Source: Giardia intestinalis
Taxonomy: Eukaryota
Length of the DNA: 64,000 nt
NCBI GenBank assembly: GCA_000002435.2
Contig: CM018789.1
Strand: one strand, 5' to 3'
Below the pieces are notes generated by a model. That model was not told the DNA's origin. It ran no database searches and worked only from the letters and a program-made list of their open reading frames with translations. Below are positions 3,401 through 50,978 of the stretch, in pieces (the first letter of the stretch is position 1; every line of letters starts with the position of its first letter). Made by a program: the position numbers and the translations under genes.

Positions 3401-3404
3401 ATGT

Positions 3405-3419
3405 ACTTAGATAGTAAAC
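3405..3419 (+). promoter_or_regulatory. VSP-type extended polyadenylation element ACTTAGATAGTAAAC (contains AGTRAAY), 5 nt after the VSP stop.
   Basis: Exact match to the conserved VSP 3' motif ACTYAGRTAGTRAAY. The mirror copy lies at 6074..6088 on the minus strand. Confidence 0.7.
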
Positions 3420-6073: not shown

Positions 6074-6088
6074 GTTTACTATCTAAGT
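6074..6088 (-). promoter_or_regulatory. VSP-type polyadenylation element (mirror copy) for the right-arm VSP.
   Basis: Plus strand reads gtttactatctaagt, the reverse complement of ACTTAGATAGTAAAC, immediately 3' of the minus-strand stop at 6093. Confidence 0.7.
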
Positions 6089-6092
6089 ACAT

Positions 6093-7379
6093 CTACGCTT
6101 TGCCCCTGCAGATGAACCACCAGCAGAGGAAGCCGACGAGTCCCCCGACGACGACGATGACAGCCACAGAGATGCCAGCGATGGCACCTGTGCTAAGGCC
6201 GCTCTTATTCGTGCTCCCGCCGGCACTGTCACCGTTCATGAGGTAGCAGAGAACGGAGCCAGTATTGCTAGATGGAGGAGCGCAGCTCATGCAGCCAGCA
6301 ACTCCCTTGACACTTCCACTGTCACTTTCACACGAAATACATGTGTTTGGCCCTGATCCGACCATGTAGTACCCAGTTGCACACGTTGTACAAGTATTTG
6401 CAATGTCTGCGGTCGAGCATGTCTTGCAGGTGAAATGACACGAGGGGCATACGTCAGAAGAACTAGGAGGAAGACCATTGGCACACGCCTGACATCCACC
6501 ATTGCTATCAGCTAGTGTACATATCTGTTTGCCTGGCTGTCTATCTGCCTGGTAACAGCCACCATTCTTGAGGAAGTAGCCCCCACTACAAGACGTGCAG
6601 GATCCACTGGTAACTTGTGTGCAGAACTGAGCACGCGCGTTGGCCGTACAGACCCCGTTCAGAGGAGCCTGAGTACCCACTGAGCACTGGGAGCAGTAGT
6701 CTGTCCCGCCGATCCTTGCCCCACAGACCTTACATCCGTTCTTGTCCGCCGTACACGCATCCCCGCAGGTGCCCCCTTGGGCAGGATCACCACCTCCATA
6801 TGTTAATGCCTTGCCTGCAGGACAAGCACTACACTGATTGTTGGCTGGCCCAACGCACTCAGCGCACTCAGGGCTGCATGGCTTACACTTCTTGTCAGTA
6901 TCTCCGTAGTATCCGCTGATGGCTGTGCAGTCATGTGCGCACTGGTTTGTAGGGGTGAGGTAGTCGCCATCATTACATTTAGTGCAGATTTCATTGCCTG
7001 TTTTGGGGTTGTCACAGGTCTTACAGTTGGGAGTATTGCACCGCGCTTCTGGGTTCTCGTTGCACTGGGTATTCCCGGCGCTCGGCGTGTATCCGTCCTC
7101 GCACTGCTCGCACTGCGTGTTGTCCGCGTTACACTGCTTGCAGTTTAGAATCTGGCAGGCGGACCCCGCGCCGTAGACAACAGAGTTATCAGCGCACACT
7201 CCGTCGATCAGCACGTGGCCCGCTTTGCACCTCATACAGACCTCGACGCCACGGACCGCCCTGCACCAGCCGGTTGCGCAGTTGGAGTGCTGGTGCCCCT
7301 TGCATTGTGCAGCGAGAGCGCTCATCAAAAAGCAAAGAACTAGTAGCAACATTGCGGCCCTGCTAGATCTATTAATCAT
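6093..7379 (-). CDS. Variant-specific surface protein (VSP), 428 aa. It has the same N- and C-termini as the 593..3400 VSP but only one 39-aa repeat unit.
   Basis: The ORF-track protein starts MINRSSRAAMLLLVLCFLMSALAAQCKG and ends ...WWFICRGKA, identical to the left VSP apart from 13 missing repeat units. Confidence 0.9.
   Translation of the reverse strand: MINRSSRAAMLLLVLCFLMSALAAQCKGHQHSNCATGWCRAVRGVEVCMRCKAGHVLIDGVCADNSVVYGAGSACQILNCKQCNADNTQCEQCEDGYTPSAGNTQCNENPEARCNTPNCKTCDNPKTGNEICTKCNDGDYLTPTNQCAHDCTAISGYYGDTDKKCKPCSPECAECVGPANNQCSACPAGKALTYGGGDPAQGGTCGDACTADKNGCKVCGARIGGTDYCSQCSVGTQAPLNGVCTANARAQFCTQVTSGSCTSCSGGYFLKNGGCYQADRQPGKQICTLADSNGGCQACANGLPPSSSDVCPSCHFTCKTCSTADIANTCTTCATGYYMVGSGPNTCISCESDSGSVKGVAGCMSCAPPSSNTGSVLCYLMNGDSAGGSTNKSGLSTGAIAGISVAVIVVVGGLVGFLCWWFICRGKA
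7045..7161 (-). repeat. Single 117-bp unit in the right-arm VSP, matching the 14-copy array at 811..2448.
   Basis: Coordinate mapping from the left arm. The right VSP protein contains one ...SACQILNCKQCNADNTQCEQCEDGYTPSAGNTQCNENPEA. Confidence 0.8.
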
Positions 7380-10300
7380 GCATGTTGGTATTAGTGACAG
7401 TGCTGGTGGCCAATACGATCACATCTGCTAGCCTTCTACCGTGGCTGGGCCATCTGGATAGCCTCATTGACCTTCCATGTCAGGAAGCAACGTGTCCGTA
7501 TCTTGATGGTAGACCCTCGCCTGTGTGGTCCTCCAGCATTCCACAAAGGACGTGGTGCCACATGACGTGCCTGCACACGCTCCCTGGCTGGCCTACTGTG
7601 CGGACACGAGACCGTGCACACCGCAGAATACCACGCATATGTCCAGGCACGCCTCCAGATGCTCACGCGGGGTGGCTGGCTAGAGCACGAGACGAGCAGA
7701 TACAGGCCGTGTGCTCTGCCCAGCAGTGGCTTGGCTGATAGCACCACCGTGTCTGGTCTGTTCACTAGACAGCTACACAGAGAAGCGCTTCTCCGAAAGA
7801 GCCGGCGCACCTCTGAGTAAAGTGCCAGGGGGATTGACCTTGTGTGTTTATGGTGTCATGAGCGGACAGACAGTAATGGCCTCTGTAAGCAAAAGAGCAG
7901 AAAAGCGTAGTCATGATGGCGCCTCCAGGGCACTCGCTGTGCAATGCCACCGGCAAGGACAGTTAGGCACTGCCAATAGGCCAGTCTGCGTCAGTAAACA
8001 CGCAGTGTTCGCAGGCCGAACCATGTACCTTTGCAAGCGGGCAGTGTAACCATTTCAACTTTTAATGCTGTTAAGCGATCTGTATAGTCCGCTTCATCTG
8101 GACGCCTCACGTGCCTTCGCCGCAACCACTGCTTCCATCTCGCAAGCCAACCATGCTATTGATGGAATGAGGCAGCAATACATCCGCCGCCCTTAATTCG
8201 CCCAGGCTGCCAATTCCACCCTGCAAGCTGCCCGCCACCTACCGTAGATCGATGTGGATGCATACTGCGGTGTGGTTGGGCCTGGAATAAGCAGATCTCA
8301 ACTGGGAGTCAGTCTCCTACTCTCCGTCGTCTGGCTCTGTCTCTGGTGTGAGCAGGACCATGCAACCACGAAAGACATCAGCTCCCTGCCAGTAGACAAT
8401 ATGCGCTGCAGAATAGGAGAACGTAGTGGGCCCCTAAGCTGCCCCGCTCGAGGAGCCGCTGCTTCTTTAACAGGGTTGCCCGACGACAGCAGGCACCAGT
8501 ATGGCTACCAGGCCCTTCTGGCTCTGACTTGCAGAGCATCCCCAGCACCGCTCCGGTAAGAGCTGTCTTTCCTATTGGCTTCTGCCGTCCGGGCGTCAGT
8601 TATGGCGAGAATTAACCCTTGCCCATTGGTACTGGTCGAACACTCACTACGTGTTGCTCGTCTAGGAAAGATTGATCTTGCCGCTCCACGGGCTATTCGC
8701 CATGCTGGATGACGAACATATGTGCCACTCAGCCCCTAGTCTTTATTGGATGCAAGGCCAGCTATGCAGGGTTACAGGGCCGCCTCGCCATCCTTAAGTT
8801 GAGCTCTTAGAAGTGTCCTACGTTTTACTAGACGCAACCTAGGTCCGTCCAACTCTATGCTTTATACTAATTCTAGATTGGGTTAAGCGTGCCTGGTAGT
8901 GAAGGTATCTACGGTACTTCCACTCACCGTGAGCAGTTCATAGAAGCCCCTGTGGCTCATCGCCTTCAATACTTGTGCGTTCACTCATCGATACCTCCGC
9001 GTTATTCAGCATAACTATAGTATGTCACCTGTATGCGTCAAGCTACAGCTCCTAAGTGTCTTACAGCAAATACCTTGCGTCTGAGCACCTGGTTAATTCA
9101 GCATCCACGCGTATAAAACATGATAGAAGTCTGTGGAGTATGGTGGCTTCCATTTTCTCTTTCCCCTTTTCTGACTCTGGTTGACTTTATCTTTGCTGGG
9201 TCAAATATGCACTATCTACGCGCACCTTAATGTTAACGGCACTCGTATGTCCTGCCAGGTCATATAAATCTTTATCAGCCGTTGCATGATAATTGTCTGG
9301 CATAATATGCAATCTGGTATTGAATGAAGAATAAAGCGCCCACTTTTGTAATGAGGACTTGTTGTGCTTATGCTGGGAAATAATAGATGGTCAAGTATAA
9401 CCGTACAAGGCTGTAGGACACTCTGCTGGACGATTTTATGAGTATAGGAAGCTGCCTGCTTTAACCTACAGCTCATTTCATTCACGTCATAAGCATTTTG
9501 CCACACAAGATCACTTTAAAAGCATTCTGTGATTACCAGACATCTTTTGATACCAGTCCCGGGTCAACAAAGCAAGCTGCTTATTGTAATTTGGAAAATT
9601 GGGTAACGGCTCCATGGATTCTTGGGTATCATGCCCACTAATCAGCAACTACCAAATATCCTACTTCGCATCTACTTTTTGCAATCTGTTTTTTGTAAGA
9701 CGGCGACTGAAGCGCTAATGGCTCAGTTTCCTAGACCATCCATATCTCTACATAAAGGTTGCCATCGGAAGTCTCCATAAATAGAACATGCAAACTCGAC
9801 AGACAAGCTTCTAGTATCAGCCTTCTCACAATGTATCTATGACAACGGGTCTGTCTTTAGTCAATCGATACTTATCCAGAGAACAGTAGCGCGGCAGTAG
9901 TATAGATGATTATTACGTAGCTTATGCAGGGGCTTGTTGTCAGCAACAAGAGATAAAACAACCTTAGCCTTACAAGATTAAAAGTTCCACATTAGCTAAA
10001 AACGATAGGCTCAGTGACCATTTTTCATGCCACTCACCAAACTTAAGCCGTTTACAGATTTGACGTTTAGTTGCTCTTACAATCTTTACTCTGCTGGTTG
10101 TCTGTTTGTTTGGATCTCTAGTTAAGGTTGGGCCAGTCTGCAATCTTACTCGTGCTCAATTGCGTGACACGCCATAACCATAATATCATTTATGATCTAG
10201 CCATCTATTGCAGGCGCTACTTGCTACATCAGAAACAATGACCGTGGATCCATTACCTTCCCTTTGGTGGTCAAAGTATCATAAGGGACAGACTCTTCTC

Positions 10301-24306: not shown

Positions 24307-27300
24307 ATGACCACGTTTGTGAGTACCTTTCTTCCGGTGGGGGATCGTTTGAGCGACCCGGATTACGCTGATAACGCAGTCCAGACAGTACTGTATTTCC
24401 CCAAGCTGGCAATTTTTGCTGAGACAACAACGATCTATTCTACCTCATACAAGCCCAACGATTCCCATGGGCCCATTGGACTTACGTACCTGAATGAAAG
24501 TGTTAATAACGGCATCATCTTATCCGTTTCAAAGCGGAGCGCGTCCTCATTTCTCTGCCTATCTGCTATTGTAAAGGATAGTGACCCTGACAGTCTCTCT
24601 GCTCTCAAATTCCTCCAGCATAGGATCAGTGTGAGGCGTGATGTTGGTAATCCAGACGTCTCAGCAGATTTACACACTCTGGAATATCTTCTAATCCATA
24701 ACAAGATGTACACCACCTACACGGTGTACAGTGTGACTGATGCTCAGTGCGAATTAAAGTACGTTGCCCCCACGTCAGTACCCTTGATTGGAGCCATCGC
24801 TGTGGAGGGGACGCCATTTATTGCTGCCACTGGTGTTTCAAAAGACGGCTATAACTTTACATTTGATTGTCTTCTTGATGAGGATAATGGGGGGAAGCTT
24901 ATCCCTGTGCGCACCGTTAAACAGAAAACAGGAGACGTCACATCCTTCGTTGACACAGCCCTTTACCCCGCCATCAATATGATATCTGACCGCCCCTCTA
25001 CCGCATGTACTACTCCTGCAACGACAGTCAAAGACTTTGTCCATCAGGTTAGCTCTCGTAACACGCGCGCTGCATCTGATGTTCTGTATAAATTTTCTGC
25101 TGTCCACCTAGATTCTAGTACAAAAACTGTGTACTACAGAGAGTACGATTTGAAATCGACTAACTTACGAGTCATACATGCCCCAGGTACAAAGAAGTCG
25201 GATAAGCACAAGGCAGCAGACTCAGTTGATTATAGTGCGACCATAGAAAGCTTCAAGCCAACTGTCCATTATACCAGGACGCTCATTGTTAACTCTGCGG
25301 TGCCCATTGTTCGTATTGCAGCGCTAGTTATGCCGTATACGCAGAACTCGCTTCTCAATGACAAGTACGCCGTTATCACAGACTGCGGTGACCTTCAACT
25401 TTATTCCAGGAGAGAGCAGGCAGACGGTCCTTCTGCTAGCATCAAAGTGTTTTCTAAAAAGCTAAGACGAGCGTTCCTTGTGCCTCTCAGAGATGGAGTT
25501 ATCATGCTCACCTCTTCTACCGGGGAGTCTGCTTTAGTTGGCATAGATGGCAAGTGGAACTCCGACAAAAATATTGAAGAAATGCGGGGCCATCTCTGCA
25601 AAATCTTTATTGATGAGTTCTTAGCAACTAATCCTAATTACGACCAACAGAATTTGAGACACGAGCTGTCGAAGGACCTTCTCCCGCCTATTGACTCCTT
25701 TTCCAAGTCAGTTCAGGTGAAGAAGCACATAGATAAGCTAGCAATAATAACCACCTTCTCGTACAATTCGACTGTCACCTGTGCCTCCACGGCTCCTGAT
25801 CATAAGCTTGTTTGTTTGGGCTTGACATCCCGAAAGTTCATCTTTGTGCCCACAGAGCCGATCAAGAACAGGGCTCTTTTGTCAAGCTATAGAGGTAAGC
25901 TGAGCCGCGAAACTGCTAATAATCTGCAGGGACAGTACACAAAGTATGATGTAGAGGCTGCAGTGAAGGATACTGTCGCGTACTTGGCCAACCGGGGCCT
26001 TAATGGTCAGCAGCTCATGGAGCGTGTTAGCTTTTTCTTCGCATTTTCAAAGGACGTGGGGCACTCAGACTTTTTGCCTGTGCAAGAAAGTGTTCTAGAT
26101 GTTGCAAATCATAACCACGATGCTCCATCAGATACGATTGAAATGCTCTCCATTCTGGCATCTGTCACTAAGGACGAGGTTCTGGGGAAGTCTAGCTTGG
26201 CGGCCTATGACCCTGATCTCGGGAAATCCATGATAAACGACCTCAGGGAGGTGATGCGCAGTACGTTAAGGACGGTCGCCGTCCCCGGTGTCGGATCCAC
26301 GGCGATCCCAGGAGAAGGAGCCCTTCAGGCTTCCGATCATCATCTTCTTGCAGATCAGCTTTCGGACCATACTGGAACACGCTCTAAACGAGTTGAGTTC
26401 CTGGAGCCAACGCTGCGTGGAGCAAAGCTGTCGACTGCAATTAATTTCACTCTTGCGGATCTGAGTGCCATAGAGACAAGAGGATTAACTGAAGCTAACG
26501 GCTCCCACGTTGCTGCACCGATACACTCTGCCAGCGGACTTTATCAGACAGATCGAAATGTGGTGCAAGAACCCCCAGATCACGCTCATCTAGACTCATT
26601 AATAGAGGAGAATTTTAAGAATCATCTTGTTGATGCAACTCGTAACCTTTTAGAGTCGGGCTTCGACTGTCAGAGACTTTTTAACGCCGTCGAGGAAGAC
26701 GTGAAAACTGCCATACTTAGTATGATGAATGTTTCTGACCTGAATGAGGACTCCAGAACTGCGCGACTGGCAGATCTTCCATTGGTGCCTCATCACGCTG
26801 ATGAGCGTGTCACGTCAGGCAGAGACGCAATGTTAGATGAATATCCGGCTGAGCCAGGGGTTAACGTTCCCGTGTCTCTCTTGTCTGCGGCTTGGCTTGG
26901 AGCAATTAGTAATAGTCTAGCTGTTAGGGATACTACGAGACATCCTGTACAGCTTCCTGTGCTTAGCAACCTAGGCGGCGCCAAGTTGTTGCTAACTCAT
27001 TACAAGGAGATCCAGGAAAAGAAATATACTTTAGTACGGAATAAGTTTACTTTGGCGCTAGAGCTACTATTAGCTGATGATCCTCTTTTTTTGGCAGCCT
27101 CCTGCTCCGCCAGGGGGTTGTCTAGCATGAAGAATTCATATTATTTGACAGACTATATTCGCCGGGAGCATGAAGAGATCTCACAGTGCCCATACTGCTC
27201 CGTTTTTTCCATTCGATGCAATCTTTTCCAGCTCTCTTCGCGTGGAGAGACTGTGTGCAGCACAACTGAGCGCTTGCTGTGCGAGATCTTAGATAGCTCA

Positions 27301-28593
27301 CACGAGATAAGGCAGGACTATGCTGTCCGTATTATTGCAGGAATGGAGGCCTTCTTGACAAGAGTATATCAAGAAGATCTTAATACGGCAATGACTGCCC
27401 CCGGGGAGGAACCGCTGGCATCCTTGCAGTATACACAGTTTCCTCAGCGTCTCATTACATTTGTCCCCGATGGAGGGCTGGTGAATAATTTGACTTTCAT
27501 GCAAGACATTGCAGGACCCAGTGGAGCTCCTCAAAAGGTCAGATATGAGCTTATTGGAACCATATCACAGGACTGCTTGGCTGTTTACAAGCTAGATACT
27601 GTCGGTAGATGGTGTATGCTCGAAGGCAGTGATTCTACCGGGCTCACCATCAGTATCAGGCCCAATGACGTAGCAGATAATAGTTTTTATGCCGTATACA
27701 AGCAAGTCAGTGGCTCAGAAGGTGCAGTAGGAGTGCCCCTGGATTCGTTGCACAACATCATGACACTGGCATACGGTACCGACGATACTCTGCGGCCGTC
27801 TGCAGAGATACCGGATTCTGATCTCAATCCGCTCAGCGATTCGTCCTTGAAGAAAGAAATATCTCTTTTAAAATCTCAGTTGGAGTACCGAACAAGGCGT
27901 GAAGAGAGAGCGACAGAAAAGGCACAAGCATTAAGCGCAGAGAACCATGAACTGAAGAAGAAGATTGAGTCACTGAAAGTTGATTTGAAATTCGAAGAAA
28001 TGCTTACAAAAAGCGAACTTCTTCGTCAGCAGAGTGCAGCGGAAAATGCAGAGCAGGACCGCAGGCTAGATGAGCTCTTGCGTCTTCAAACAGAATTGCG
28101 GCAACGTGAAAGCGAGGAGAAGATCTTGATATTAGAGCTCGAGGAGGCTCGCAGGAGAATCGCAGACTTGGTGCATACCCGCGAGACAGCCGACATAGAT
28201 GAATACGATGTAATACTGAAGCATTGCTACACTACCTTGGGTGGAGATGAGGCAGACGTACCTGAAAAGCGCAAGGAGCTCCTGCTGATGTTACAGAAGC
28301 AGTGCATTGCAGTGTCGACAGAGTATGACTTGAATAACCCCTATCGCAAAGGAAGCATGCGGCTATCATATGGTCCAGCAAGGGCCTCACAAATGCGCAT
28401 GTCAAGAAGCAGGGCCGATGCCCGATCCATAGCTCAGAGCTTGGAAGCGTTCCATGTTTCAGACCTTCAAGACAATGAGTTGGGGAACAGAAAGGTAATA
28501 GCGACTACGCTTCTTCCTGTCATTTGTTTCTTTATTGGAATAGCGATCATTGTTATTTTTGCGATGGCATTCAACAGGAACGACGTCGTATGA
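24307..28593 (+). CDS. Large tail-anchored coiled-coil protein, 1428 aa, function unknown.
   Basis: Long uninterrupted ATG-initiated ORF. The C-terminal ~250 aa are heptad-rich (LKSQLEYRTRREERATEKAQALSAENHELKKKIESLKVDLK...), followed by a terminal TM segment LLPVICFFIGIAIIVIFAMAF. Confidence 0.5.
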   Translation: MTTFVSTFLPVGDRLSDPDYADNAVQTVLYFPKLAIFAETTTIYSTSYKPNDSHGPIGLTYLNESVNNGIILSVSKRSASSFLCLSAIVKDSDPDSLSALKFLQHRISVRRDVGNPDVSADLHTLEYLLIHNKMYTTYTVYSVTDAQCELKYVAPTSVPLIGAIAVEGTPFIAATGVSKDGYNFTFDCLLDEDNGGKLIPVRTVKQKTGDVTSFVDTALYPAINMISDRPSTACTTPATTVKDFVHQVSSRNTRAASDVLYKFSAVHLDSSTKTVYYREYDLKSTNLRVIHAPGTKKSDKHKAADSVDYSATIESFKPTVHYTRTLIVNSAVPIVRIAALVMPYTQNSLLNDKYAVITDCGDLQLYSRREQADGPSASIKVFSKKLRRAFLVPLRDGVIMLTSSTGESALVGIDGKWNSDKNIEEMRGHLCKIFIDEFLATNPNYDQQNLRHELSKDLLPPIDSFSKSVQVKKHIDKLAIITTFSYNSTVTCASTAPDHKLVCLGLTSRKFIFVPTEPIKNRALLSSYRGKLSRETANNLQGQYTKYDVEAAVKDTVAYLANRGLNGQQLMERVSFFFAFSKDVGHSDFLPVQESVLDVANHNHDAPSDTIEMLSILASVTKDEVLGKSSLAAYDPDLGKSMINDLREVMRSTLRTVAVPGVGSTAIPGEGALQASDHHLLADQLSDHTGTRSKRVEFLEPTLRGAKLSTAINFTLADLSAIETRGLTEANGSHVAAPIHSASGLYQTDRNVVQEPPDHAHLDSLIEENFKNHLVDATRNLLESGFDCQRLFNAVEEDVKTAILSMMNVSDLNEDSRTARLADLPLVPHHADERVTSGRDAMLDEYPAEPGVNVPVSLLSAAWLGAISNSLAVRDTTRHPVQLPVLSNLGGAKLLLTHYKEIQEKKYTLVRNKFTLALELLLADDPLFLAASCSARGLSSMKNSYYLTDYIRREHEEISQCPYCSVFSIRCNLFQLSSRGETVCSTTERLLCEILDSSHEIRQDYAVRIIAGMEAFLTRVYQEDLNTAMTAPGEEPLASLQYTQFPQRLITFVPDGGLVNNLTFMQDIAGPSGAPQKVRYELIGTISQDCLAVYKLDTVGRWCMLEGSDSTGLTISIRPNDVADNSFYAVYKQVSGSEGAVGVPLDSLHNIMTLAYGTDDTLRPSAEIPDSDLNPLSDSSLKKEISLLKSQLEYRTRREERATEKAQALSAENHELKKKIESLKVDLKFEEMLTKSELLRQQSAAENAEQDRRLDELLRLQTELRQRESEEKILILELEEARRRIADLVHTRETADIDEYDVILKHCYTTLGGDEADVPEKRKELLLMLQKQCIAVSTEYDLNNPYRKGSMRLSYGPARASQMRMSRSRADARSIAQSLEAFHVSDLQDNELGNRKVIATTLLPVICFFIGIAIIVIFAMAFNRNDVV

Positions 28594-29632: not shown

Positions 29633-30367
29633 TTAAGCATCCTCAGGGTCAGCAACTAGGTCTTCCTCCCCGAGAGGCTCGAAGATACTACCCCTGGTAA
29701 ATCCCACGGTGGCCCTTTCCCATTGGTGCAGTGGACAGACGGACTTACAGACTCCGTCCAGCCAGGTGTCAATGGAGCAAAAGTGGAGCTTTTTCAATTC
29801 CCAAACAGTGCTCTTGAACTTGTAGCTATCAAACACACTAACCACTTGCTTGCGAAACCGGCTCCCGAGACAACGTTCAGGGGTTGCTTCCCCGCCAAGA
29901 TAGATCTCCACATGCACCATGTCGTGCTTTTGCGGCCGTTTTTTGTTGTTGAAGTAAACCCCCTCATAGAAAATGAGGTCGCCTTCGCGGATAAGGTCAT
30001 GGGTGTCATAGCGGAGGGGGAGGGTGTCAAATTGATATGCTTGGTTGTAGGGCAGGGGCTCAAAACCAAACTCGTCCTTTAAGTCCATTAGAGCCTGTCT
30101 TATGAGTCCGCAACAGTCAAGCTGAAGGGGGTAGGCAGCCAGTTCGGAGCCTTCTGGATGCTCTTTGCGAGAGTAGGGTGTACCGCAGTAGCCCATGGCT
30201 TTCTCAATGAAGAGCCTGCGAAGTCTATCCTTCTCTGCCTGGGTGCGTTGAATGGGCTTGGCCCGAGCCGCAATCTTTGCCCGTTCGGCTCGCTTCTTTT
30301 CTAGAAACGTTTGGAACGCGTCTTGAAGAGAACAGGTGGTGTCGTGCGTGTCCTCTTGCGCATCCAT
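29633..30367 (-). CDS. NlpC/P60-like papain-fold cysteine peptidase/amidase domain protein, 244 aa, with no signal peptide.
   Basis: AMGYCGTPYSRKEH...LQLDCCGLIRQAL matches the NlpC/P60 Cys motif (lGtPYvwGG....GfDCSGlv). GDLIFYEG....HDMVHVEIYLGG matches the His motif (pGDLvFf....HVgIYiG). Cys-then-His order is canonical, not permuted. Confidence 0.5.
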   Translation of the reverse strand: MDAQEDTHDTTCSLQDAFQTFLEKKRAERAKIAARAKPIQRTQAEKDRLRRLFIEKAMGYCGTPYSRKEHPEGSELAAYPLQLDCCGLIRQALMDLKDEFGFEPLPYNQAYQFDTLPLRYDTHDLIREGDLIFYEGVYFNNKKRPQKHDMVHVEIYLGGEATPERCLGSRFRKQVVSVFDSYKFKSTVWELKKLHFCSIDTWLDGVCKSVCPLHQWERATVGFTRGSIFEPLGEEDLVADPEDA

Positions 30368-30411
30368 TTAAGATCTTTGCCTAAAAATACCATTTAAAAA
30401 ATCTATAGGAA

Positions 30412-31557
30412 ATGAAGTACACATTGAAAGATGTCTTCAAATTGTTCACGCCACTGGCAGAGATGCCCCCAGAAATTCAGACAATTAAGAATAATTTCCC
30501 ATTGAGGATTTTCTCTGATATCTCCAGCGGTCTTGCCATTTCTGACGTGAGTAATTTGAATTTCTCTGAGTTCATCAAGACTCCTAATCTTCGTCAAAAC
30601 AGAGGTACACAGCCACGTGCAAAACAATATGCATCGAAGTTTGTAACGGATAGCCAACAAAAGACACTAGCGCACCAAAATCAAATGCCCGAAGAGCCTA
30701 TCCATTGGGATAAGCCTGACCCAAGTGATAAGTTTGACGATCTTCTGTGCCCAGACTTCAGGACTGCCGGCGGAAAAGAAAGTATAAGTGATTCGTTTCG
30801 AAGTACCACTGCCTCAGATGCTGTCCTCGATGTGATGGACCTTATTTCTGCACCAGACAGTAGGAAGAACATCTATTCAAATCCAAAGCATCAATCTGCA
30901 TTAACAAGTGATCTGCCAGTAGAGACTGCCAATGAATCAGATAATGCAGGGGACAGGGGTCCTATTGGCCTTGCAGGAGACGACATTGAAGACGTTCTAC
31001 AAAAGTTAGAGCAGGGTCCTGTCACCGGACCCAACACTATCGACTCTTTACCCGAAAGTCAAGGTATTTCTGAACATGGAGTACCGCAGTTCCCTGTCCC
31101 GCCCACTAGTGATCCTGCGATCTTTGGGTTCCCAACACTACCCTACACACAAGTAATTCCGGGTATACAGCCAATCTCAAACCAGCTTGTTTTCCCGGTG
31201 TACCATCCCCAACAGCAGATTGTCGGACTTGCAAATCCAATGGGCGCTGCCCCATCCATGCAGCCTATGCACGGGATACCGGCTATTCCAGCTGTGTATA
31301 CTATGCCTGTGCAACAGACTCCTCAGACGTATGATGTCAGCTGGGAGTATCTGGATCTAAACAACATAATGAGGGGGCCATTTCCCAGCGTAACAATGTG
31401 GAAGTGGTACAAACAGGGCAGTTTGCCCAACACGCTTCGCATCCGCGTTGCTGGTGATACCGGACCATTCCTTCCCCTTTTTAGCAGGTGGGCCAAGTCA
31501 TTAGCACGAGGAGTTGATCCTTTTAGTGTACCTCCATCAGAACTATCTTATCAGTAA
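30412..31557 (+). CDS. GYF-domain protein, 381 aa, with a Pro/Gln-rich middle region.
   Basis: C-terminal WEYLDLNNIMRGPFPSVTMWKWYKQGSLPNTLRIRV fits the GYF consensus (W.Y.D..g..qGPf....m..W...GyF). ATG preceded by catttaaaaaatctatagga. Confidence 0.45.
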   Translation: MKYTLKDVFKLFTPLAEMPPEIQTIKNNFPLRIFSDISSGLAISDVSNLNFSEFIKTPNLRQNRGTQPRAKQYASKFVTDSQQKTLAHQNQMPEEPIHWDKPDPSDKFDDLLCPDFRTAGGKESISDSFRSTTASDAVLDVMDLISAPDSRKNIYSNPKHQSALTSDLPVETANESDNAGDRGPIGLAGDDIEDVLQKLEQGPVTGPNTIDSLPESQGISEHGVPQFPVPPTSDPAIFGFPTLPYTQVIPGIQPISNQLVFPVYHPQQQIVGLANPMGAAPSMQPMHGIPAIPAVYTMPVQQTPQTYDVSWEYLDLNNIMRGPFPSVTMWKWYKQGSLPNTLRIRVAGDTGPFLPLFSRWAKSLARGVDPFSVPPSELSYQ

Positions 31558-44709: not shown

Positions 44710-45087
44710 ATGGATGCACTGCCGTCCATCTGTACTCTGTCCTACGGGAACACTGTGGTAAACGTGCAGCACTTGCCATTCCACGTGGGGAGCAGCCCAA
44801 ACATGGATCTCCAGATAGGGGAGGACTTTTTTTCCTCACACCAGTTTTCCCTCTCAACAGATATCACAGGAAGGCTCCATGCATGTGTCGTTGATCCCTC
44901 TGGCCTGTACGTTGACGGCGTTTATTACCCCAACAACTCTCCCCGCATTCTCTTGCAGAAGAGTTCCACCGTAGGAACCCAAAAGTTACAGCTCAACGTT
45001 GTCCAAACGGGGTCTCCCTCAGTGATCGAGCGTCCTGTTGGCTTTGTCAGCGAGAAGGTCCTTTCATATGTGGGCTTCAACCAGTGA
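44710..45087 (+). CDS. Small protein with a possible FHA-like fold, 125 aa.
   Basis: TVVNVQHLPFHVGSSPNMDLQIGEDFFSSHQFSLST...VVDPSGLYVDGVYY loosely fits FHA (fhiGR.....l.d..vSr.Ha.i.......D.gS.NGt.vNg). Very A/T-rich upstream. Confidence 0.3.
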   Translation: MDALPSICTLSYGNTVVNVQHLPFHVGSSPNMDLQIGEDFFSSHQFSLSTDITGRLHACVVDPSGLYVDGVYYPNNSPRILLQKSSTVGTQKLQLNVVQTGSPSVIERPVGFVSEKVLSYVGFNQ

Positions 45088-46024
45088 AGTTTATAGCAAT
45101 CCTATAGATCCAGATGCCCACTATCCCCAAAAGCACGAGTATTATGGTTATCCATACGCATTTTCCGATGCTGGCAACCTTCTTTCTGACGTCAGCGGTT
45201 GACTTATGCAGCTCCTTGACGTCGGTGACTGCGGTTTCCATTTTCTCGTCAACAACCTCAATTACCTCTCCAATTTGATTAAGCTTCTCTTCAATCTGAT
45301 TTGTCTGTGCTTTAGCACGATTAACAGCACCTATTAGTATCTTAAGATCTTCGTTAAACTCTTGCTCCATGCTTGCAAGTTTGTCCCGAGCCTCCTCTGC
45401 GTTAGCATGGACAGGCAGGAGCTCGTCTATCTTGCTCATCTTTGTCCCAGAGCTCCCAAACAATGGGGCAGAAGGAACCATGGGCGAACCAATGTCTGTC
45501 CGTTGGAATGCGCGTTCACGCTCTTCTTCCGTGAAGGCCCTGCAGTAGTCATCTATCAAAGCAGCCATCTCCTTGCATTCCTGGCAGTTCTTTTGGGCGA
45601 GCGCGCGAGCATCACCGGAGCTGCTGTTTAGTTCGCGCTCACATTTTCTTTCTAGCTCTCGGAACTGGTCAACATTTTCCTTAAGCCCCCGAATTTTCTC
45701 TCTTATCTCTTGCGAAAGAAAGGGTATCTTTGTGTTAGATGGGTTCCTCTTGATCATTGCATCACGCTCTTCCAGGGATTTACGTAGTTCATTGATGTGC
45801 AGTTGCGAGATAATGCGAAGGTTCTCTATTATGTCTGCCTCTTTCTGCTCAATCCCCGCATCCCGCTCCTGTAGATCCTTCACACTGCTCTGGTATGGCT
45901 CCCCGGCCGCCTCCTCGTAGATGCGTAAGAGACGTTCTCGAACAGAGTACATCAGCTTTTTTACCAGCTCTGCTTTTTCTTTCTCTTTTGCAAGTATGTT
46001 CAAATATTTATTGCACATTGCCAT
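45077..46024 (-). CDS. Syntaxin-like Qa-SNARE (tail-anchored), ~315 aa. Start placed at the ATG at 46024 (MAMCNKYL...) instead of the upstream ATG at 46090, which would overlap the divergent gene.
   Basis: SNARE motif ...NQIGEVIEVVDEKMETAVTDVKELHKSTADVRKKV parallels syntaxin ...[33 protein letters not shown]. It is followed by the TM anchor CVWITIILVLLGIVGIWIY. Confidence 0.5.
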   Translation of the reverse strand: MAMCNKYLNILAKEKEKAELVKKLMYSVRERLLRIYEEAAGEPYQSSVKDLQERDAGIEQKEADIIENLRIISQLHINELRKSLEERDAMIKRNPSNTKIPFLSQEIREKIRGLKENVDQFRELERKCERELNSSSGDARALAQKNCQECKEMAALIDDYCRAFTEEERERAFQRTDIGSPMVPSAPLFGSSGTKMSKIDELLPVHANAEEARDKLASMEQEFNEDLKILIGAVNRAKAQTNQIEEKLNQIGEVIEVVDEKMETAVTDVKELHKSTADVRKKVASIGKCVWITIILVLLGIVGIWIYRIAINFTG

Positions 46025-46045
46025 TATTCCATTTTCTAAATTGAA

Positions 46046-48370
46046 ATGCCTGAACAAGGCCTGCACCACCAGCACGGGTACTATAGACATACTGCGGTGT
46101 TGAGTAAGTTTTCGTTAGGGAAACTATGCAGGGCACATCGGTCTTCAGATGCTGTGCCCGTTTTAACCTGCAATATAGGTCTAGATGCCTTGCGTCAATC
46201 AGAGCAAGAGGGCTTTGTTCGTGCCGCAAATAACTTTTTAGGGAATCACCATTATAATCTTATTAAATACAACTCTATCATATTAGACGACGAAGGCCGA
46301 CAGGCACACTTGGAAGCAGATCTGTGGAACGGGGAGACACTTGAAAAGTTTGTGTGGGAGACTCGCAAGGCACACAACGGTCTACCAGAGGCTGATGTGT
46401 GGCTCATTATTGCACAGGTAGTGAGTGGGATCCACTTTTTGTGCAGCACACACAACTCTGATGAGGTCTTTGCAATCCTTTCCCCACAGACAATCATCAT
46501 ATGTGATAACTGCTGCCTGAAGCTATGCGTGTATGGTGAGTGGATCAAGTACTGTCACACTCTCTATAACGATAAGACAACCGGGCAATCTCTTATTTTG
46601 GATGAGCTACATAGATTGATATTATATTTGACCGGCAACCTTATTGACACATACAGTGGAGCTCTTCAGGACTTCTATGCTGGCTGCAAGCACCATAGTA
46701 CCTCACTGAGAACCAAGACGCTTGGACTCATAAGGTGCCCGGAGATACAACATGCTCTTGTCGTAGCCAGGAGCAACGCAGGGCTGGTGCTACGCCTACC
46801 ACCCAGGCCTGTGCACCCTCACGCTACGTACCCAACAGAGGAACCGGGTGACGCTAAGGGCAGCAACAGCACATCTCTGCGGAGCCCTTCAAGTTCTGAT
46901 GCAGAAGACGCTGCGTCGATTGCTGAGTTCTGTGGTAATGCAAAAGATGCTTCGATGCTGATAGACATGTATTCGTCACCCGGTTGTGATATCGGGCTTC
47001 TTACTCTTGAGGCCATGGTGTGTGTAGGTGATCTGCAAGGAGTGAGAGATGTCGCTTGGATCATGCTACAGCGTGGTCTGGTATCTGAGGTGTTTCAGCT
47101 AGCACTCTCAATGAAGAATGGAGACATAATTGCTACAATCATAGACTTTGCTGAAGAACACAAACTGCGTCTGCGACTACCTGTGCAACAAGCAGTGTTT
47201 TCTGACAGCCAAACAAACCTCATACGCGCAGCTCAAACTAAGGAGAAGGGCTTTCAGTTATCGCAGGAAGATATGTCGGATATGGGGAAGATATACGGGT
47301 CCAAAACAAGCTGCTACTGTACGGCATTGATGACTGCGGCCTTTTACGGCAATGATGAGGCAGTGGTTCAGCTGCTCGGTGAGCTGGGAATCTATGACTA
47401 CTATGGTCTGACCGCACTTCAATATGGATGCATAAATGCATCGTGGTCTCGCCTACGATACTTGATTCCAGAGATGAAAATGAGCAGGGTGACATGGCTG
47501 ATGGTTTATGCAGCACTGGGAGACGTTGATAACGTACAGAAATGCATCGAAGAACTACATGGCCAAACACACTATGGTTATACTGCACTTATGTTTGCAG
47601 CTAGCAACAATCACATTGATTGCGTGAAGTTACTCCTTCAAGAGGCAGGGTCCAAGACCCAGAGTGGGCGGACAGCACTCATTCTGGCTGCGCTACAAGG
47701 CCACGTGGCATGTGTGCAGGCCCTGTATCCTCTTGAAAAGGATCTTCTGACGAATGGTGGCGGAACCGCCTTGATGGCTGCGGCCGAGGGACAATCTCTG
47801 GAGTGTGGTAGGTGCCTTATTAAACAGGCCGGAATGCGAAGTCGGGATGGATATACGGCTATCATGTGGGCCGCCCAGACCGGCTCTGCAGGGCTTGTGA
47901 AGTTGCTCTTGGAAAACGAGGCTGGTTACCAAAACAAGAGTGGCTGGTCTGCACTGATGCTAGCAACCGTGAATAATCACTGGGAGTGCGTAGAGCTTCT
48001 TGCTCCTCGGGAAGCAGGACTACTACGGCCAGGAAAGCACACGGCTCTTATGCTAGCTGCGGAATGTGGATACCACAAGTGCGTTGAGATCCTCTTACCC
48101 TACGAGAAAAGAATGCAGAACACAGATGGATATACTGCTTTAATGTATGCAGCTGACGGGTGCCACGTAGAGTGTGTTTCGGCCCTTGCAAGGTACGAGT
48201 TTGACATAAAAGACGCTGCTAAAAGAACGGCCCTCATGCGCGTACGTAAGCGCGTAAGTGACCCCTCGTTCGCTAGAAAGGATGATGCTCAAGACTGCCT
48301 TGATATTCTCACTGAGTTACTAAAACCGAAGTCTATGCTTCCAGAGAATTTAATGCCTTTAGCAGATTAA
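46046..48370 (+). CDS. Ankyrin-repeat protein with a degenerate N-terminal kinase-like region (Giardia NEK-like pseudokinase / Protein 21.1 type), 774 aa.
   Basis: At least 8 ankyrin repeats (YTALMFAASNNHIDCVKLLL, RTALILAALQGHVACVQALY, GTALMAAAEGQSLECGRCLI, YTAIMWAAQTGSAGLVKLLL, HTALMLAAECGYHKCVEILL ...). The N-terminal ~300 aa are kinase-like but lack an HRD motif. Confidence 0.6.
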   Translation: MPEQGLHHQHGYYRHTAVLSKFSLGKLCRAHRSSDAVPVLTCNIGLDALRQSEQEGFVRAANNFLGNHHYNLIKYNSIILDDEGRQAHLEADLWNGETLEKFVWETRKAHNGLPEADVWLIIAQVVSGIHFLCSTHNSDEVFAILSPQTIIICDNCCLKLCVYGEWIKYCHTLYNDKTTGQSLILDELHRLILYLTGNLIDTYSGALQDFYAGCKHHSTSLRTKTLGLIRCPEIQHALVVARSNAGLVLRLPPRPVHPHATYPTEEPGDAKGSNSTSLRSPSSSDAEDAASIAEFCGNAKDASMLIDMYSSPGCDIGLLTLEAMVCVGDLQGVRDVAWIMLQRGLVSEVFQLALSMKNGDIIATIIDFAEEHKLRLRLPVQQAVFSDSQTNLIRAAQTKEKGFQLSQEDMSDMGKIYGSKTSCYCTALMTAAFYGNDEAVVQLLGELGIYDYYGLTALQYGCINASWSRLRYLIPEMKMSRVTWLMVYAALGDVDNVQKCIEELHGQTHYGYTALMFAASNNHIDCVKLLLQEAGSKTQSGRTALILAALQGHVACVQALYPLEKDLLTNGGGTALMAAAEGQSLECGRCLIKQAGMRSRDGYTAIMWAAQTGSAGLVKLLLENEAGYQNKSGWSALMLATVNNHWECVELLAPREAGLLRPGKHTALMLAAECGYHKCVEILLPYEKRMQNTDGYTALMYAADGCHVECVSALARYEFDIKDAAKRTALMRVRKRVSDPSFARKDDAQDCLDILTELLKPKSMLPENLMPLAD

Positions 48371-50978
48371 TTAGGGGCTCAGTAGCTATGGAGGCTACCT
48401 TGTGCCTGACATACTGGCTTGTTTCTCTGGCCAGAGTCTCCTCATTCTCCATTAGAATGCTATATATCCCCGAATACTTCTGGATCAATGCTGCGTAGTC
48501 TGCTTCAGAAAGATCTGGGATTGCTCTGACTATTCTCTTCCTAATGAACTCATCAGAGACAGAAACCATATTTTCTGCATCGGTAGGCTCTAGCTCTGGT
48601 TCTCCGCGATCCATACACGTCATCTTCAACCTCATGAGCAGCGGTGCAAACGTGGTATCAGTCGACCACAACACGCGCATTGATTTGTAGGTTCTTAAGA
48701 GTTTAAACAGTCTTGCAGTGAGACCTAGAGGCTTAGAAGCAGCAATTGTGGTTGACTGATTGCTCTGTGTATCGATTTGTATCATGTCGTGAGACCTTTC
48801 TGATGGTATAGAGCACATCAGGAAGAACGTGGGGAACTGTGCATTTAGTCTCTCTAGCTGGTCCTCAAGGCGATTGTTCCGGAGAGAGGAAATGAGATCT
48901 TGCTCGCTTTTGCGTTCAACTGCGGTCATGGATGACAGGATGTAGTCCCCGAGAGTAAGTTGTCTCACAATGAGTCTTAAACCTTTGGACAGGACAAATA
49001 GCTCTACAGGGACAACGGATCTTAATTCTCTATTGTCTATGTACAGTAGGCGCTGTGGATTCTCAAGCTTGCCAGGACTTTGTTGCTTGGTTTGTATGCC
49101 CGTAAAATCTATCTCTGTGGGCGTGTTATAGTACGAAGAAACAGACATGTGCATTGAGGCCGTATGGAGAACCTTTAATGCCTCCGATTCTACATTGTTA
49201 ACAAGGATAGGGTAATTCGTTGTAAAAGACTGGGCACCTCCCTCAATTACTATGAGGGGTATCTGTATAGGTGTCTGATGAGCCTCCTGTTTGTACCTAA
49301 AGTTGAGACGCTCTAGAACTCGAACTGCTTGGATCGACGCGCCACAGCAGATAATTGACGCAATTGTGCTTATTCCTAGCTGATCCAATCGATCATACAG
49401 GGAGAACGGTGTTGACATAGCCTTTGTAGAGAAGAGGGGATTTGACACAGTTGAGATGATTACCACTTCTGCACCGCTATGGATCCTTCCAGAGATGCTC
49501 TTTGTTAACGCATCTATAACGGCTCCTTTACTTGGAGTAAAAGGAACATATGCATCATCACTTAGCTTTGTTGACTCTTTATCAATGCTTGTCTGTAGGT
49601 AAAGACGTCTGTGGATTGTATTAAGCTCTGGAGCGCTTGCTTCTTGTGAATACTTACTAGGGTCAGACCCCTGAGTAGCAGTATCCGTTGACAGTGCTGA
49701 CCCCTTAGATGGTACAGTCCTTCGTGGTGCTGGCTCTAATGCAATGAGGTCAGCTCCTGGAACTCCATCCTCACTTTGAGAAGAGAGCATCTCTACCTTC
49801 CCACTTAGTACAAGACACTCTTCCAGCTCTCGGGCACCAAAGTATGTACCCAGAAGAACAACAATTCGTGTGGGAGGACCATGAAGGTGCTTTTGCTCCG
49901 TGTACATGTGGGCCTCTATGGAGGCTGCAACATCTTCGCTTGCAGACTCAACGGCTGTGGCCATAGCAGTTATCAAGGTTGTGCCTCCTTGGGCTCCACA
50001 GACCGCCAGCAAAGAATCGTAGTAGCTGCGGATGTCTGCAGGGCGTGTTAATGGATGCTTGAATTGGTCCAGAAATAGTCCGTAACACTTTAGCACCTCT
50101 GTGCGGTGTTGTGGCAGCGCCAACTCCATGTGGTAAAGAAACCAAAGCGCCCAACTAATGTACTCATCTGCGAAAAGCAGGTCTGCATGCTTAATTAGTT
50201 TGGCCTGGGGAAGACGTGCAATTGCCTCGTACCGTGGCTGCTTTCGTGCAAGTAAAAGAGACCATCGACGTATCTCTTGCCATACACGGGGATGCGTGGG
50301 ATGCTCTAAGCCGACATCCACACAAATAACCTCCTCCATGAATAAGTTTGCCCTTCGATGAATCGTATCTAACACAGAAGAGCCTGCAGGCAGAGGAGAT
50401 GCAGGAAGGTCCTTAAGGACTATCTGCATAGACCTGTGTACGACGTTTATTGCTGTTATATGGAAAGCCTCTATCTGCTCCAGATGCACTTGGATTTCAT
50501 AAAGGTTCTGCACAAACGCAAACATTAAAGGCTGATCGGATAGATACTTTACCCAACAACGGTTCTCCCTTAAGGCTGGGGCAAGAGCTTTCAACAACGG
50601 GGCAGGTTTTCCAGCTGTAAGGACAAGGAGTCCATCAAAAGATGATAGACTGAGTTCTCCTCGCACAATCTCTGACACAAAGGTTGCAACTGGAAAGACA
50701 AAGACGTCCGCAGCAGTTGTCGCTTTGAGTTTAGAAGAAGATATGTAAAGATGACCCCTATTGGAAGCTGCAAGGAAGCGGAAGAGAGGCGCTAGGAAAT
50801 GCGATACTCCTTGAGTATATACTACGCCCACTGCACGCCGCCTGATTGTGTAGCTGCGAAGGAAGAGCTCGCAGGCCTTGCAGACCCCCAATCCTGAGCT
50901 GAGTATTATGGCCTCTGATAGGGAAAGGGGGTCATCTGCTGTGTTCGGATCTACCTTGAGGAGTTTTTCATACTGCAT
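48333..50978 (-). CDS. ERCC4: XPF/ERCC4 (Rad1)-family structure-specific DNA repair endonuclease, 881 aa.
   Basis: ERCC4 nuclease core LLYIDNRELRSVVPVELFVLSKGLRLIVRQLTLGDYILSSMTAVERKSEQDLISSLRNNRLEDQLERL vs human [65 protein letters not shown]. A C-terminal (HhH)2-like ...IPDLSEADYAALIQKYSGIYSIL. A long helicase-like N-terminal region. Confidence 0.65.
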   Translation of the reverse strand: MQYEKLLKVDPNTADDPLSLSEAIILSSGLGVCKACELFLRSYTIRRRAVGVVYTQGVSHFLAPLFRFLAASNRGHLYISSSKLKATTAADVFVFPVATFVSEIVRGELSLSSFDGLLVLTAGKPAPLLKALAPALRENRCWVKYLSDQPLMFAFVQNLYEIQVHLEQIEAFHITAINVVHRSMQIVLKDLPASPLPAGSSVLDTIHRRANLFMEEVICVDVGLEHPTHPRVWQEIRRWSLLLARKQPRYEAIARLPQAKLIKHADLLFADEYISWALWFLYHMELALPQHRTEVLKCYGLFLDQFKHPLTRPADIRSYYDSLLAVCGAQGGTTLITAMATAVESASEDVAASIEAHMYTEQKHLHGPPTRIVVLLGTYFGARELEECLVLSGKVEMLSSQSEDGVPGADLIALEPAPRRTVPSKGSALSTDTATQGSDPSKYSQEASAPELNTIHRRLYLQTSIDKESTKLSDDAYVPFTPSKGAVIDALTKSISGRIHSGAEVVIISTVSNPLFSTKAMSTPFSLYDRLDQLGISTIASIICCGASIQAVRVLERLNFRYKQEAHQTPIQIPLIVIEGGAQSFTTNYPILVNNVESEALKVLHTASMHMSVSSYYNTPTEIDFTGIQTKQQSPGKLENPQRLLYIDNRELRSVVPVELFVLSKGLRLIVRQLTLGDYILSSMTAVERKSEQDLISSLRNNRLEDQLERLNAQFPTFFLMCSIPSERSHDMIQIDTQSNQSTTIAASKPLGLTARLFKLLRTYKSMRVLWSTDTTFAPLLMRLKMTCMDRGEPELEPTDAENMVSVSDEFIRKRIVRAIPDLSEADYAALIQKYSGIYSILMENEETLARETSQYVRHKVASIATEPLINLLKALNSLEA

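Follow-up and report, generated by a model that had tools for sequence, protein, structure and literature searches.

The DNA considered here is a stretch of 64,000 nucleotides from contig CM018789.1 of Giardia intestinalis (assembly GCA_000002435.2), referred to below as the window. Its minus strand carries an intron-less gene for a small, free-standing protein that is predicted to be a divergent cysteine amidase of the NlpC/P60 superfamily. The protein belongs to an ancient, eukaryote-only family whose members are recurrently fused to a ligase domain, identified by sequence in animals as that of the polyglycylase TTLL10. Tentatively, this association suggests that the Giardia enzyme is coupled to protein glycylation and may act as a deglycylase.

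29633..30367, minus strand: complete coding sequence of the NlpC/P60-like Cys-His amidase, 244 amino acids plus stop (open reading frame list, ATG start)

The gene and the fold of its product

An open reading frame (ORF) at exactly these coordinates had been described in an earlier note made from the sequence alone. It is confirmed, with an ATG start and 244 codons, and the motifs quoted in the note are all present in canonical order, namely G62-T-P-Y65, D84-C85-C86-G-L88, G129-D-L-I-F-Y134 and H152-V-E-I-Y-L-G-G159. A sequence search with the protein returns 89 homologues at E<=1e-3, with a best E of 7.6e-146. The top homologue, at 86% identity, lies on a related Giardia contig (L006) where the gene order matches that of the window, with a GYF-domain gene, a WD40 gene, a 1434-aa gene and a KH-domain gene. 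Non-synonymous divergence between the Giardia gene and this syntenic relative (pN 0.065) is far below synonymous divergence (pS 0.81), and the gene is therefore real and under strong purifying selection. The 89 homologues, together with 1009 cluster representatives found with a profile hidden Markov model (HMM) and a confident AlphaFold2 (AF2) model, place the observation far above chance.

The AF2 model has a mean predicted local distance difference test (pLDDT) of 89.4 and a predicted template modelling (pTM) score of 0.83. It shows a papain-like alpha+beta fold, with the nucleophile at the start of a helix packed on an antiparallel sheet. Profile alignment to the solved structures 3npf/3pvq superposes DC[CS]GLVR, GDLvF and HV.IyLG, so that the D-C-[SC]-G and H-V-x-I-Y motifs are both present with the Cys preceding the His, and in the alignment to 3npf Cys85 and His152 are therefore matched to the catalytic pair (DCSG and HVGIYLG in 3npf). 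The nearest structural relatives are all hydrolases, the solved ones including 3npf/3pvq, YkfC-type enzymes and DL-endopeptidases, and glutathionylspermidine and trypanothione synthetase/amidase are found as distant structural matches.

The match to Pfam NLPC_P60 (PF00877) falls below the curated gathering threshold (E=0.0016, 18.8 bits vs 23), as is also the case for most relatives, and neither an NCBIfam scan nor a single-sequence PDB search with the Giardia protein gives a match. On the profile alignment and the predicted model, the protein is best regarded as a divergent member of the NlpC/P60 superfamily, within the P60-like, non-permuted branch, and not as a standard PF00877 protein. The assignment of the fold is already known, since automated annotation names some orthologues 'NlpC/P60 domain-containing protein'. 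Neither a signal peptide nor a transmembrane segment is found (the top 19-residue Kyte-Doolittle mean is 0.92), the N-terminus is strongly charged, and a Pfam scan detects no SH3b or further domain. Thus both the papain-type fold with Cys before His and the cytosolic character of the protein, free of a signal peptide and of SH3b modules, hold as the earlier note described them.

The active site

The residues that are likely to matter for catalysis are encoded, in the order of the protein, as follows.

30113..30115, minus strand: codon of Cys85, predicted catalytic nucleophile (plus-strand ACA, coding TGT; aligns with the Cys of 3npf DCSG)
30110-30112, minus strand: codon of Cys86, the second Cys beside Cys85
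29912..29914, minus strand: codon of His152, predicted catalytic base (aligns with the His of 3npf HVGIYLG)
29906-29908, minus strand: codon of the adjacent, invariant Glu154 (HVE motif)
29858-29860, minus strand: codon of Arg170 (GSR motif)

Conservation was counted in an alignment of 309 family members, in which the denominators differ by position. Position 85 is Cys in 294/295 members, whilst His152 and Glu154 are each retained in 307/307. Gly129 and Asp130 are equally constant (304/304), as is Gln109 (301/301), and Arg170 (289/290) and Cys86 (291/295) are nearly so. The conservation of Cys85 and His152 extends over fused and free-standing forms alike, and catalytic competence, as judged from the alignment, appears to be under selection. 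Glu154 and Arg170 rival the catalytic pair in their conservation and have no counterpart in bacterial P60 proteins, where the equivalent motif reads HVGIY. These two residues are candidates either for contacts with a free amino group or carboxylate on the substrate or as stand-ins for the third catalytic residue, which is not evident in the family.

The bacterial NlpC/P60 enzymes (MEROPS C40, PF00877), which include SagA, LytE, RipA/RipB, MepS and the YkfC-like 3npf/3pvq, have the same non-permuted order as the Giardia family and share its GxPY, D-C-x-G, G-D-L and H-V-x-I-Y motifs, with the Cys and His in alignment. Unlike these enzymes, the Giardia protein is cytosolic, has no wall-binding domain and scores beneath the Pfam threshold, and its family shows no evident conserved third catalytic His/Glu. 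Conversely, the invariant Glu154 (HVE), Arg170, Asn108-Gln109 and the second Cys86 are features of the Giardia family and not of the bacterial enzymes, as are additional N-terminal helices and a C-terminal Cys/His motif. Moreover, the family is found only in eukaryotes and is tied to TTLL10, whereas the bacterial enzymes are tied to peptidoglycan.

Fusion to TTLL10

The key context that the earlier note did not have is the repeated fusion of this family to the polyglycylase TTLL10. Both domains occur together in 45/309 family sequences and in 31/150 of the best representatives at 50% identity, and the Pfam TTL domain (ATP-grasp, C-terminal) is found in 8 of the 10 long members that were scanned. 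The order is constant, with the NlpC-like domain N-terminal and the TTL domain C-terminal. TTL is the sole recurrent partner; the long members without it show no other fusion partner, having low-complexity extensions and possibly representing truncated gene models. Two fusions, P0113 and P0090, read through as single unbroken ORFs in genomic contigs, where their neighbours are eukaryotic, and the fusions are therefore not artefacts of gene modelling.

In animals, the fused partner is identified by sequence as TTLL10, a tubulin/protein polyglycylase, and the ligase of two environmental protist fusions is likewise nearest to TTLL10. NCBI gives the name 'TTLL10' to the fused proteins from Pogona, Ophiophagus, Ambystoma and Biomphalaria, and in the axolotl fusion the TTL domain shares 59-73% identity with vertebrate TTLL10. 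Further fusions occur in Acanthaster, Owenia, Candidula, Tubulanus, Lampetra and Heptranchias, as well as in the ciliate Ichthyophthirius, and the animals concerned include starfish, annelid, molluscs, nemertean, lamprey, shark, axolotl and squamates. Against rodent TTLL10, the TTL domains of the two environmental fusions from protists, P0090 and P0181, reach 177 and 159 bits respectively, in comparison with 82 and 60 bits to the glycylase TTLL3 and 45 and 55 bits to the glutamylase TTLL6.

In the tortoise Gopherus (G. evgoodei) and the snake Thamnophis, an NlpC-like gene lies immediately next to a TTL gene, on its 5' side and in the same orientation, and in Thamnophis sirtalis (L003; 9920-20113; 28838-28969) the downstream exon is 70% identical to axolotl TTLL10. 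The NlpC-like exons of these two reptiles are annotated as a separate 'uncharacterized' gene, whereas Pogona, Ophiophagus, axolotl, shark and lamprey have one TTLL10 protein. The split probably reflects inconsistent gene models of one locus.

The NlpC-like domain is thus the N-terminal part of TTLL10 in many animals, whilst the Giardia ORF is the amidase-like module alone. The characterised mammalian and Xenopus TTLL10 proteins lack the module, the construct in PMC12340829 being Xenopus TTLL10 residues 105-570, and none of the 120 best vertebrate TTLL10 matches, from frogs, mammals, birds and teleosts, contains it. Because the domain is missing from these matches yet fused elsewhere, TTLL10 seems to have possessed it ancestrally and to have lost it, or become separated from it, on several occasions, a view that revises the ancestral domain architecture of TTLL10. 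Free-standing forms are found in Giardia, Salpingoeca, Stentor and Cymbomonas, and no TTL gene adjoins the Salpingoeca locus. Neither a link between NlpC/P60 and TTLL proteins nor the idea of a deglycylase was found in the literature searched, although the 2003 survey of Anantharaman and Aravind may mention the fusion; it is this connection, and the deglycylase hypothesis that goes with it, that appears to be new.

An ancient eukaryotic family

An exhaustive profile HMM search yields the 1009 cluster representatives mentioned above, 310 of them below 1e-30. Amongst the metamonads, homologues are present in Giardia muris (68% identity), Spironucleus salmonicida (61%) and Carpediemonas, and others are found in the jakobid Andalucia godoyi and the choanoflagellate Salpingoeca. 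Invertebrate homologues come from Saccoglossus, Acanthaster, Owenia, Tubulanus, Biomphalaria and Candidula, and those of vertebrates from Lampetra, Heptranchias, Acipenser, Ambystoma, Gopherus, Thamnophis, Pogona and Ophiophagus. The ciliates Stentor and Ichthyophthirius, Ochromonadaceae, Cymbomonas, Pyramimonas, Prorocentrum and two hemimastigotes add to these, such that the named matches cover six or more major lineages and all close relatives are eukaryotic. Judged from the named top matches, the family has so far been seen in cilia- or flagella-building lineages only, an apparent restriction.

In a neighbour-joining tree of 26 members, bootstrap support is 98% for Giardia, 100% for diplomonads, 98% for vertebrates, 100% for prasinophytes, 98% for hemimastigotes and 96% for a stramenopile-like group; the tree therefore follows the organismal clades as vertical descent predicts. 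The comparison of GC content and codon usage with neighbouring genes, which had been proposed as a check, gives native values and no foreign composition: GC content at third codon positions (GC3) is 0.596 against 0.51 +/- 0.056 in the neighbours, and the synonymous-codon likelihood lies within 1 standard deviation of theirs. The family motifs were also scanned against 185,579 bacterial and archaeal species, one genome each, and a single locus was found, on a eukaryote-like misbinned contig.

This locus (L001, match 3001-3541), on CAXXVR010000009.1 and labelled 'MAG: uncultured Desulfobacterium sp.', is rejected as a bacterial homologue. The contig is 1.7 Mb long with 22-30% GC, long ORFs are nearly absent when it is read in the bacterial code, and the frame encoding the family is broken by stops or introns. 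These features suggest misbinned eukaryotic DNA of low GC content, which may use a ciliate-type genetic code.

The family is ancient, vertically inherited and confined to eukaryotes. The earlier note had proposed a bacterial-derived, perhaps recently transferred gene, and this proposal falls in the face of the eukaryotic relatives, the clade-congruent tree, the native codon usage and the prokaryote scan; the best matches are to a conserved eukaryotic family with a vertical phylogeny. Bacterial nearest relatives, a patchy distribution and a foreign composition are all lacking, and the Giardia protein has neither the signal peptide nor the SH3b or LysM domains of a wall hydrolase. Protist NlpC/P60 genes that were acquired by lateral transfer are patchily distributed, have bacterial nearest relatives and encode proteins with signal peptides, SH3b domains and a proven activity on peptidoglycan (PMC6299479); none of these features is known from the Giardia family. 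The assumption that protist NlpC/P60 genes mean bacterial lateral transfer has to be revised accordingly.

NlpC/P60 or cell-wall hydrolase genes are said to be absent from Giardia and Spironucleus (PMC4967989, PMC11437800). The present family, which is divergent and lies under the domain threshold, went undetected in these diplomonad surveys. The published absence holds for laterally acquired genes of bacterial type; as a claim that Giardia and Spironucleus have no NlpC/P60 proteins it requires revision, for it overlooks the divergent family in these organisms and in Carpediemonas.

A possible role in deglycylation

Glycylation is the one major modification of tubulin tails without a known remover, and tubulin deglycylases were described as unidentified in 2024-2025 (PMC11244163, PMC12340829). 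A conserved Cys/His family that is fused to the polyglycylase TTLL10 provides a concrete and cheap candidate. The fusions span echinoderms, annelids, molluscs, lamprey, shark, salamander, lizards, snakes, a ciliate and stramenopile-like protists, and Giardia offers a small free-standing version in an organism with heavy polyglycylation of tubulin and 14-3-3. By analogy with its fused relatives, the Giardia protein may be a cytosolic amidase coupled to TTLL-type glycylation, probably a deglycylase, a proposal that has a little less than an even chance of being right. It is nevertheless the most likely function of those considered, and in this respect the intracellular amidase role suggested earlier is retained.

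More doubtful is the broader proposal that the family represents the missing eraser of protein glycylation, with the Giardia protein as the first identifiable tubulin deglycylase and the ancestral TTLL10 as a bifunctional writer-eraser. The activity that this calls for, a Cys-His amidase ancestrally within TTLL10 that cleaves the gamma-glutamyl-glycine branch and/or polyglycine on tubulin tails, is likewise possible though on balance unlikely. Should the specific function be wrong, the family would still be an uncharacterised, eukaryote-wide cysteine amidase, probably associated with cilia.

Bacterial NlpC/P60 enzymes specialise in gamma-glutamyl amide bonds, such as that of gamma-D-Glu-mDAP, and in the side chains built by TTLL enzymes the first residue, glycine or glutamate, is linked to a tail glutamate at its gamma-carboxyl through a gamma-glutamyl isopeptide bond. 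Since the one group cuts gamma-glutamyl amides and the other builds gamma-glutamyl-linked chains, the likeliest substrate would be the glycine side chain, at the branch point and/or within the chain, on glutamates of tubulin C-terminal tails. The Giardia protein would represent the free-standing form of the amidase module, acting in the same pathway as the TTLL glycylases. The Cys85 thiolate, activated by His152, would attack the amide carbonyl to form a thioester acyl-enzyme, from which water would then free the product. Such a deglycylase would oppose the ligase and so set the length of the glycine chain. Glutamate side chains attached through gamma-glutamyl bonds are a possible alternative target, and polyglycylated 14-3-3 may be an additional substrate in Giardia, where 14-3-3 is polyglycylated by gTTLL3 and the chain shortens in encystation (PMC3795638).

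The pairing of an amidase with a ligase has a parallel in the glutathionylspermidine and trypanothione synthetase-amidases, which combine an N-terminal CHAP amidase with a C-terminal ATP-grasp-like ligase and thus share their logic with the fused relatives of the Giardia protein. In E. coli GspSA, the amidase hydrolyses the bond that is made by the ligase, and we infer by analogy that the amidase may reverse the ligase in the NlpC-TTLL10 fusions. GspSA and TryS nonetheless differ in amidase family (CHAP rather than P60-like), in ligase family and in having a small-molecule substrate, and the Giardia protein is free-standing.

The proposed role is also like that of the known erasers, namely the CCP/AGBL M14 deglutamylases, TMCP, the VASH-SVBP and MATCAP detyrosinases, and gDIP1/2, which hydrolytically strip from acidic tails the residues added by TTL or TTLL enzymes. 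VASH is a papain-like Cys protease too, of the transglutaminase type, but it belongs to a different branch of the papain clan from the Giardia family, and the family has no homology to the metallocarboxypeptidases. None of the known tubulin-code erasers is fused to a TTLL.

A number of points weigh against a deglycylase. The case for the proposed function is built on the domain fusions, on neighbouring genes and on analogy in chemistry, and a fusion indicates functional linkage without proving that the amidase reverses the ligase, so that the substrate could be glutamate chains or something else. An amidase and an elongating ligase within one polypeptide would seem futile unless regulated. To our knowledge, the Giardia M20 dipeptidases acting on 14-3-3 are the only deglycylases reported anywhere. 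These dipeptidases, gDIP1/2, have been reported to deglycylate 14-3-3 in the same organism (PMC4230590). No conserved polar residue is evident at the canonical third catalytic site, positions 166-170 on the strand after that of the His being T/S/C, I/L, G, A/S and R, although Glu154 or His148 might serve as a stand-in. The Giardia protein is unfused, the combination of amidase and ligase in a single polypeptide being a property of 45 relatives and not of Giardia, and no TTL or other microtubule-modification gene is found among the 20 large ORFs scanned in the 64-kb window. Finally, the absences from kinetoplastids, fungi, plants, mammals and birds rest on named top matches and not on a systematic census.

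Several other functions have to be considered alongside deglycylation. The enzyme could be a gamma-glutamyl isopeptidase that acts on glutamylation, stripping branch-point or chain glutamates and, for instance, clearing sites for TTLL10-type glycylases. Glutamylation and glycylation use common sites, the closest solved relatives (3npf/3pvq; YkfC-type, DL-endopeptidases) cut gamma-glutamyl amides, TTLL10 activity is reported to be modulated by glutamylation (PMC12340829), and the fusions fit a preparatory role as well as an antagonistic one. This option is nonetheless improbable, for deglutamylases are known already, in the form of the CCPs, including the branch-point CCP5/AGBL5, and TMCP, and the fusion partner is specifically TTLL10-like and not a TTLL of the glutamylase clade. 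Kinetoplastids, which are heavy glutamylators of tubulin without glycylation (PMC13203978), are not found among the named matches of the family searches, an observation that rests on the top matches only, and their apparent absence fits glycylation better than glutamylation, if weakly. About as improbable is a domain that does not erase at all, whether an acyl-transferase or transpeptidase working via a thioester, an autoprocessing protease, or a substrate-binding or regulatory domain of TTLL10. As such a non-hydrolytic or cis-acting part of the glycylation machinery, the Giardia protein would be a detached regulatory subunit. Acyltransferases (LRAT/PLAAT) and the depalmitoylase Cln5 (PMC9012467) belong to the NlpC/P60 superfamily, and both the apparent lack of the canonical third catalytic residue and the additional conserved elements at the two ends of the protein, N- and C-terminal, which are not present in bacterial hydrolases, fit such a departure. 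Yet Cys85 and His152 are retained almost without exception in fused and free proteins alike, which speaks for catalysis over binding, the widespread free form makes purely cis autoprocessing unlikely, and the nearest structural relatives, as stated above, are hydrolases without exception.

It is considerably less likely that the protein is a small-molecule gamma-glutamyl or peptide amidase, similar to the CHAP amidase of glutathionylspermidine metabolism or to enzymes that recycle gamma-glutamyl peptides. It is small, soluble and cytosolic, and small peptides are indeed among the substrates of NlpC/P60 and CHAP amidases (YkfC-type 3npf/3pvq, Gsp amidase); however, the sole recurrent fusion partner is a protein-modifying TTL ligase, and the apparent restriction to ciliated lineages would be unexpected for a general metabolic amidase. 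A laterally acquired bacterial peptidoglycan hydrolase, either recent and not retargeted or antibacterial as in Trichomonas and Trepomonas, is very improbable. Such transfers are documented in other metamonads (PMC6299479, PMC4967989), but the Giardia protein has no signal peptide, SH3b domain or close bacterial relative, its relatives are spread across eukaryotic supergroups in a clade-congruent tree, its codon usage and GC3 are native, and diplomonad surveys report bacterial-type genes to be absent from Giardia. Equally remote is an LRAT/PLAAT-like lipid acyltransferase or phospholipase. Those proteins are circularly permuted, with the His before the Cys, whereas Cys85 precedes His152 in the Giardia protein, which moreover has no hydrophobic anchor. 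Membership of LRAT/PLAAT (H-rev107) is rejected on topology, as neither the permuted order nor the C-terminal membrane anchor is present.

Regions particular to the family

Four regions of the protein can be recognised.

30194..30328, minus strand: two-helix N-terminal region, residues 14-58 (AF2 helices H14-36 and H43-58)
29768..30193, minus strand: NlpC/P60-like catalytic core, residues 59-200 (GxPY, D84-C85-C86-G, NQAYQFDTLP, G129-D130-L, H152-V-E154, G168-S-R170)
29720..29782, minus strand: C-terminal family motif SIDTWLxGxCxSxCxxHxW, residues 196-216 (conservation; pLDDT 81-97)
29636..29692, minus strand: acidic low-confidence tail, residues 226-244 (GSIFEPLGEEDLVADPEDA; pLDDT 54-65)

The Giardia protein has all the motifs of the family, namely SLQxxF, LDCCGLVR, NQAYQFDTLP, PGDLIFY, QKHxMVHVE, IG[SA]R and SIDTWLxGxCxSxCxxHxW, and it is matched by the family profile, with orthologues down to E=1e-107. 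The N-terminal region holds a SLQDAFxxF motif and an LRxxF helix ahead of the catalytic core, both of which are conserved in alignments A1-A3. By comparison with the N-terminal segment of RipA/RipB, to which Foldseek aligns them, these helices may form a docking or lid element. Within the core, D84-C85-C86-G begins a helix, NQAYQFDTLP is a loop, and G129-D130-L, H152-V-E154 and G168-S-R170 are strands.

The SIDTWLxGxCxSxCxxHxW motif is absent from bacterial NlpC/P60 proteins. Both W202 and G205 are conserved in 284/284 members. C207 is Cys in 235/283 (His in 19), C211 is Cys in 228/257 (His in 16) and H214 is His in 219/251 (Cys in 10). This interchange of Cys and His at the three positions resembles that of metal ligands. 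The C207/C211/H214 cluster, with the near-invariant C86, may be a putative structural Zn site or a redox switch.

The disordered C-terminal tail contains 7 Asp/Glu among its 19 residues, and acidic tails or linkers of the poly-Asp/Glu kind are found at the equivalent place in relatives. Its position corresponds to the start of the linker to the TTL domain in the fused proteins. More speculatively, the acidic sequence (EEDLVADPEDA) recalls the tubulin tails that are modified by TTLL enzymes, and the tail could be a pseudo-substrate or an auto-modified segment.

Neighbouring features of the window

Upstream of the amidase gene is a short divergent spacer that separates it from the gene for a GYF-domain protein.

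30368..30411, no strand: AT-rich intergenic stretch of 44 bp, divergent, between the amidase gene and the GYF-domain gene (sequence and coordinates)
30412-31557, plus strand: GYF-domain gene (domain by Pfam), in the same order in L006

The 44-bp stretch is presumed to be a putative bidirectional promoter. On the other side of the amidase gene, the ORF at 24307-28593 (plus strand) encodes 1428 aa with no Pfam match, its syntenic counterpart in L006 being the 1434-aa protein. The product is conserved in L006; its C-terminal third is coiled-coil-like and rich in Glu, Lys and Arg, and the C-terminal anchor is hydrophobic (…LLPVICFFIGIAIIVIFAMAF…), which may make this a tail-anchored protein specific to the lineage.

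Further along the window, the long ORFs at 45077-46090 (minus), 46046-48370 (plus) and 48333-50978 (minus) lie on opposite strands and overlap by 45 and 38 bases. These overlaps reflect extreme gene packing, although the one at the 5' side could instead mean that the ankyrin-repeat gene truly starts at a codon further downstream. Towards the beginning of the window there are two variant-specific surface protein (VSP) genes, at 593-3400 (plus) and 6093-7379 (minus), which match Pfam VSP with E=1e-100 and 1e-91 and mark the DNA as that of Giardia. Both are located inside a GC-richer block (0.55-0.62 over 1-8000), the remaining window having a GC content of about 0.48.

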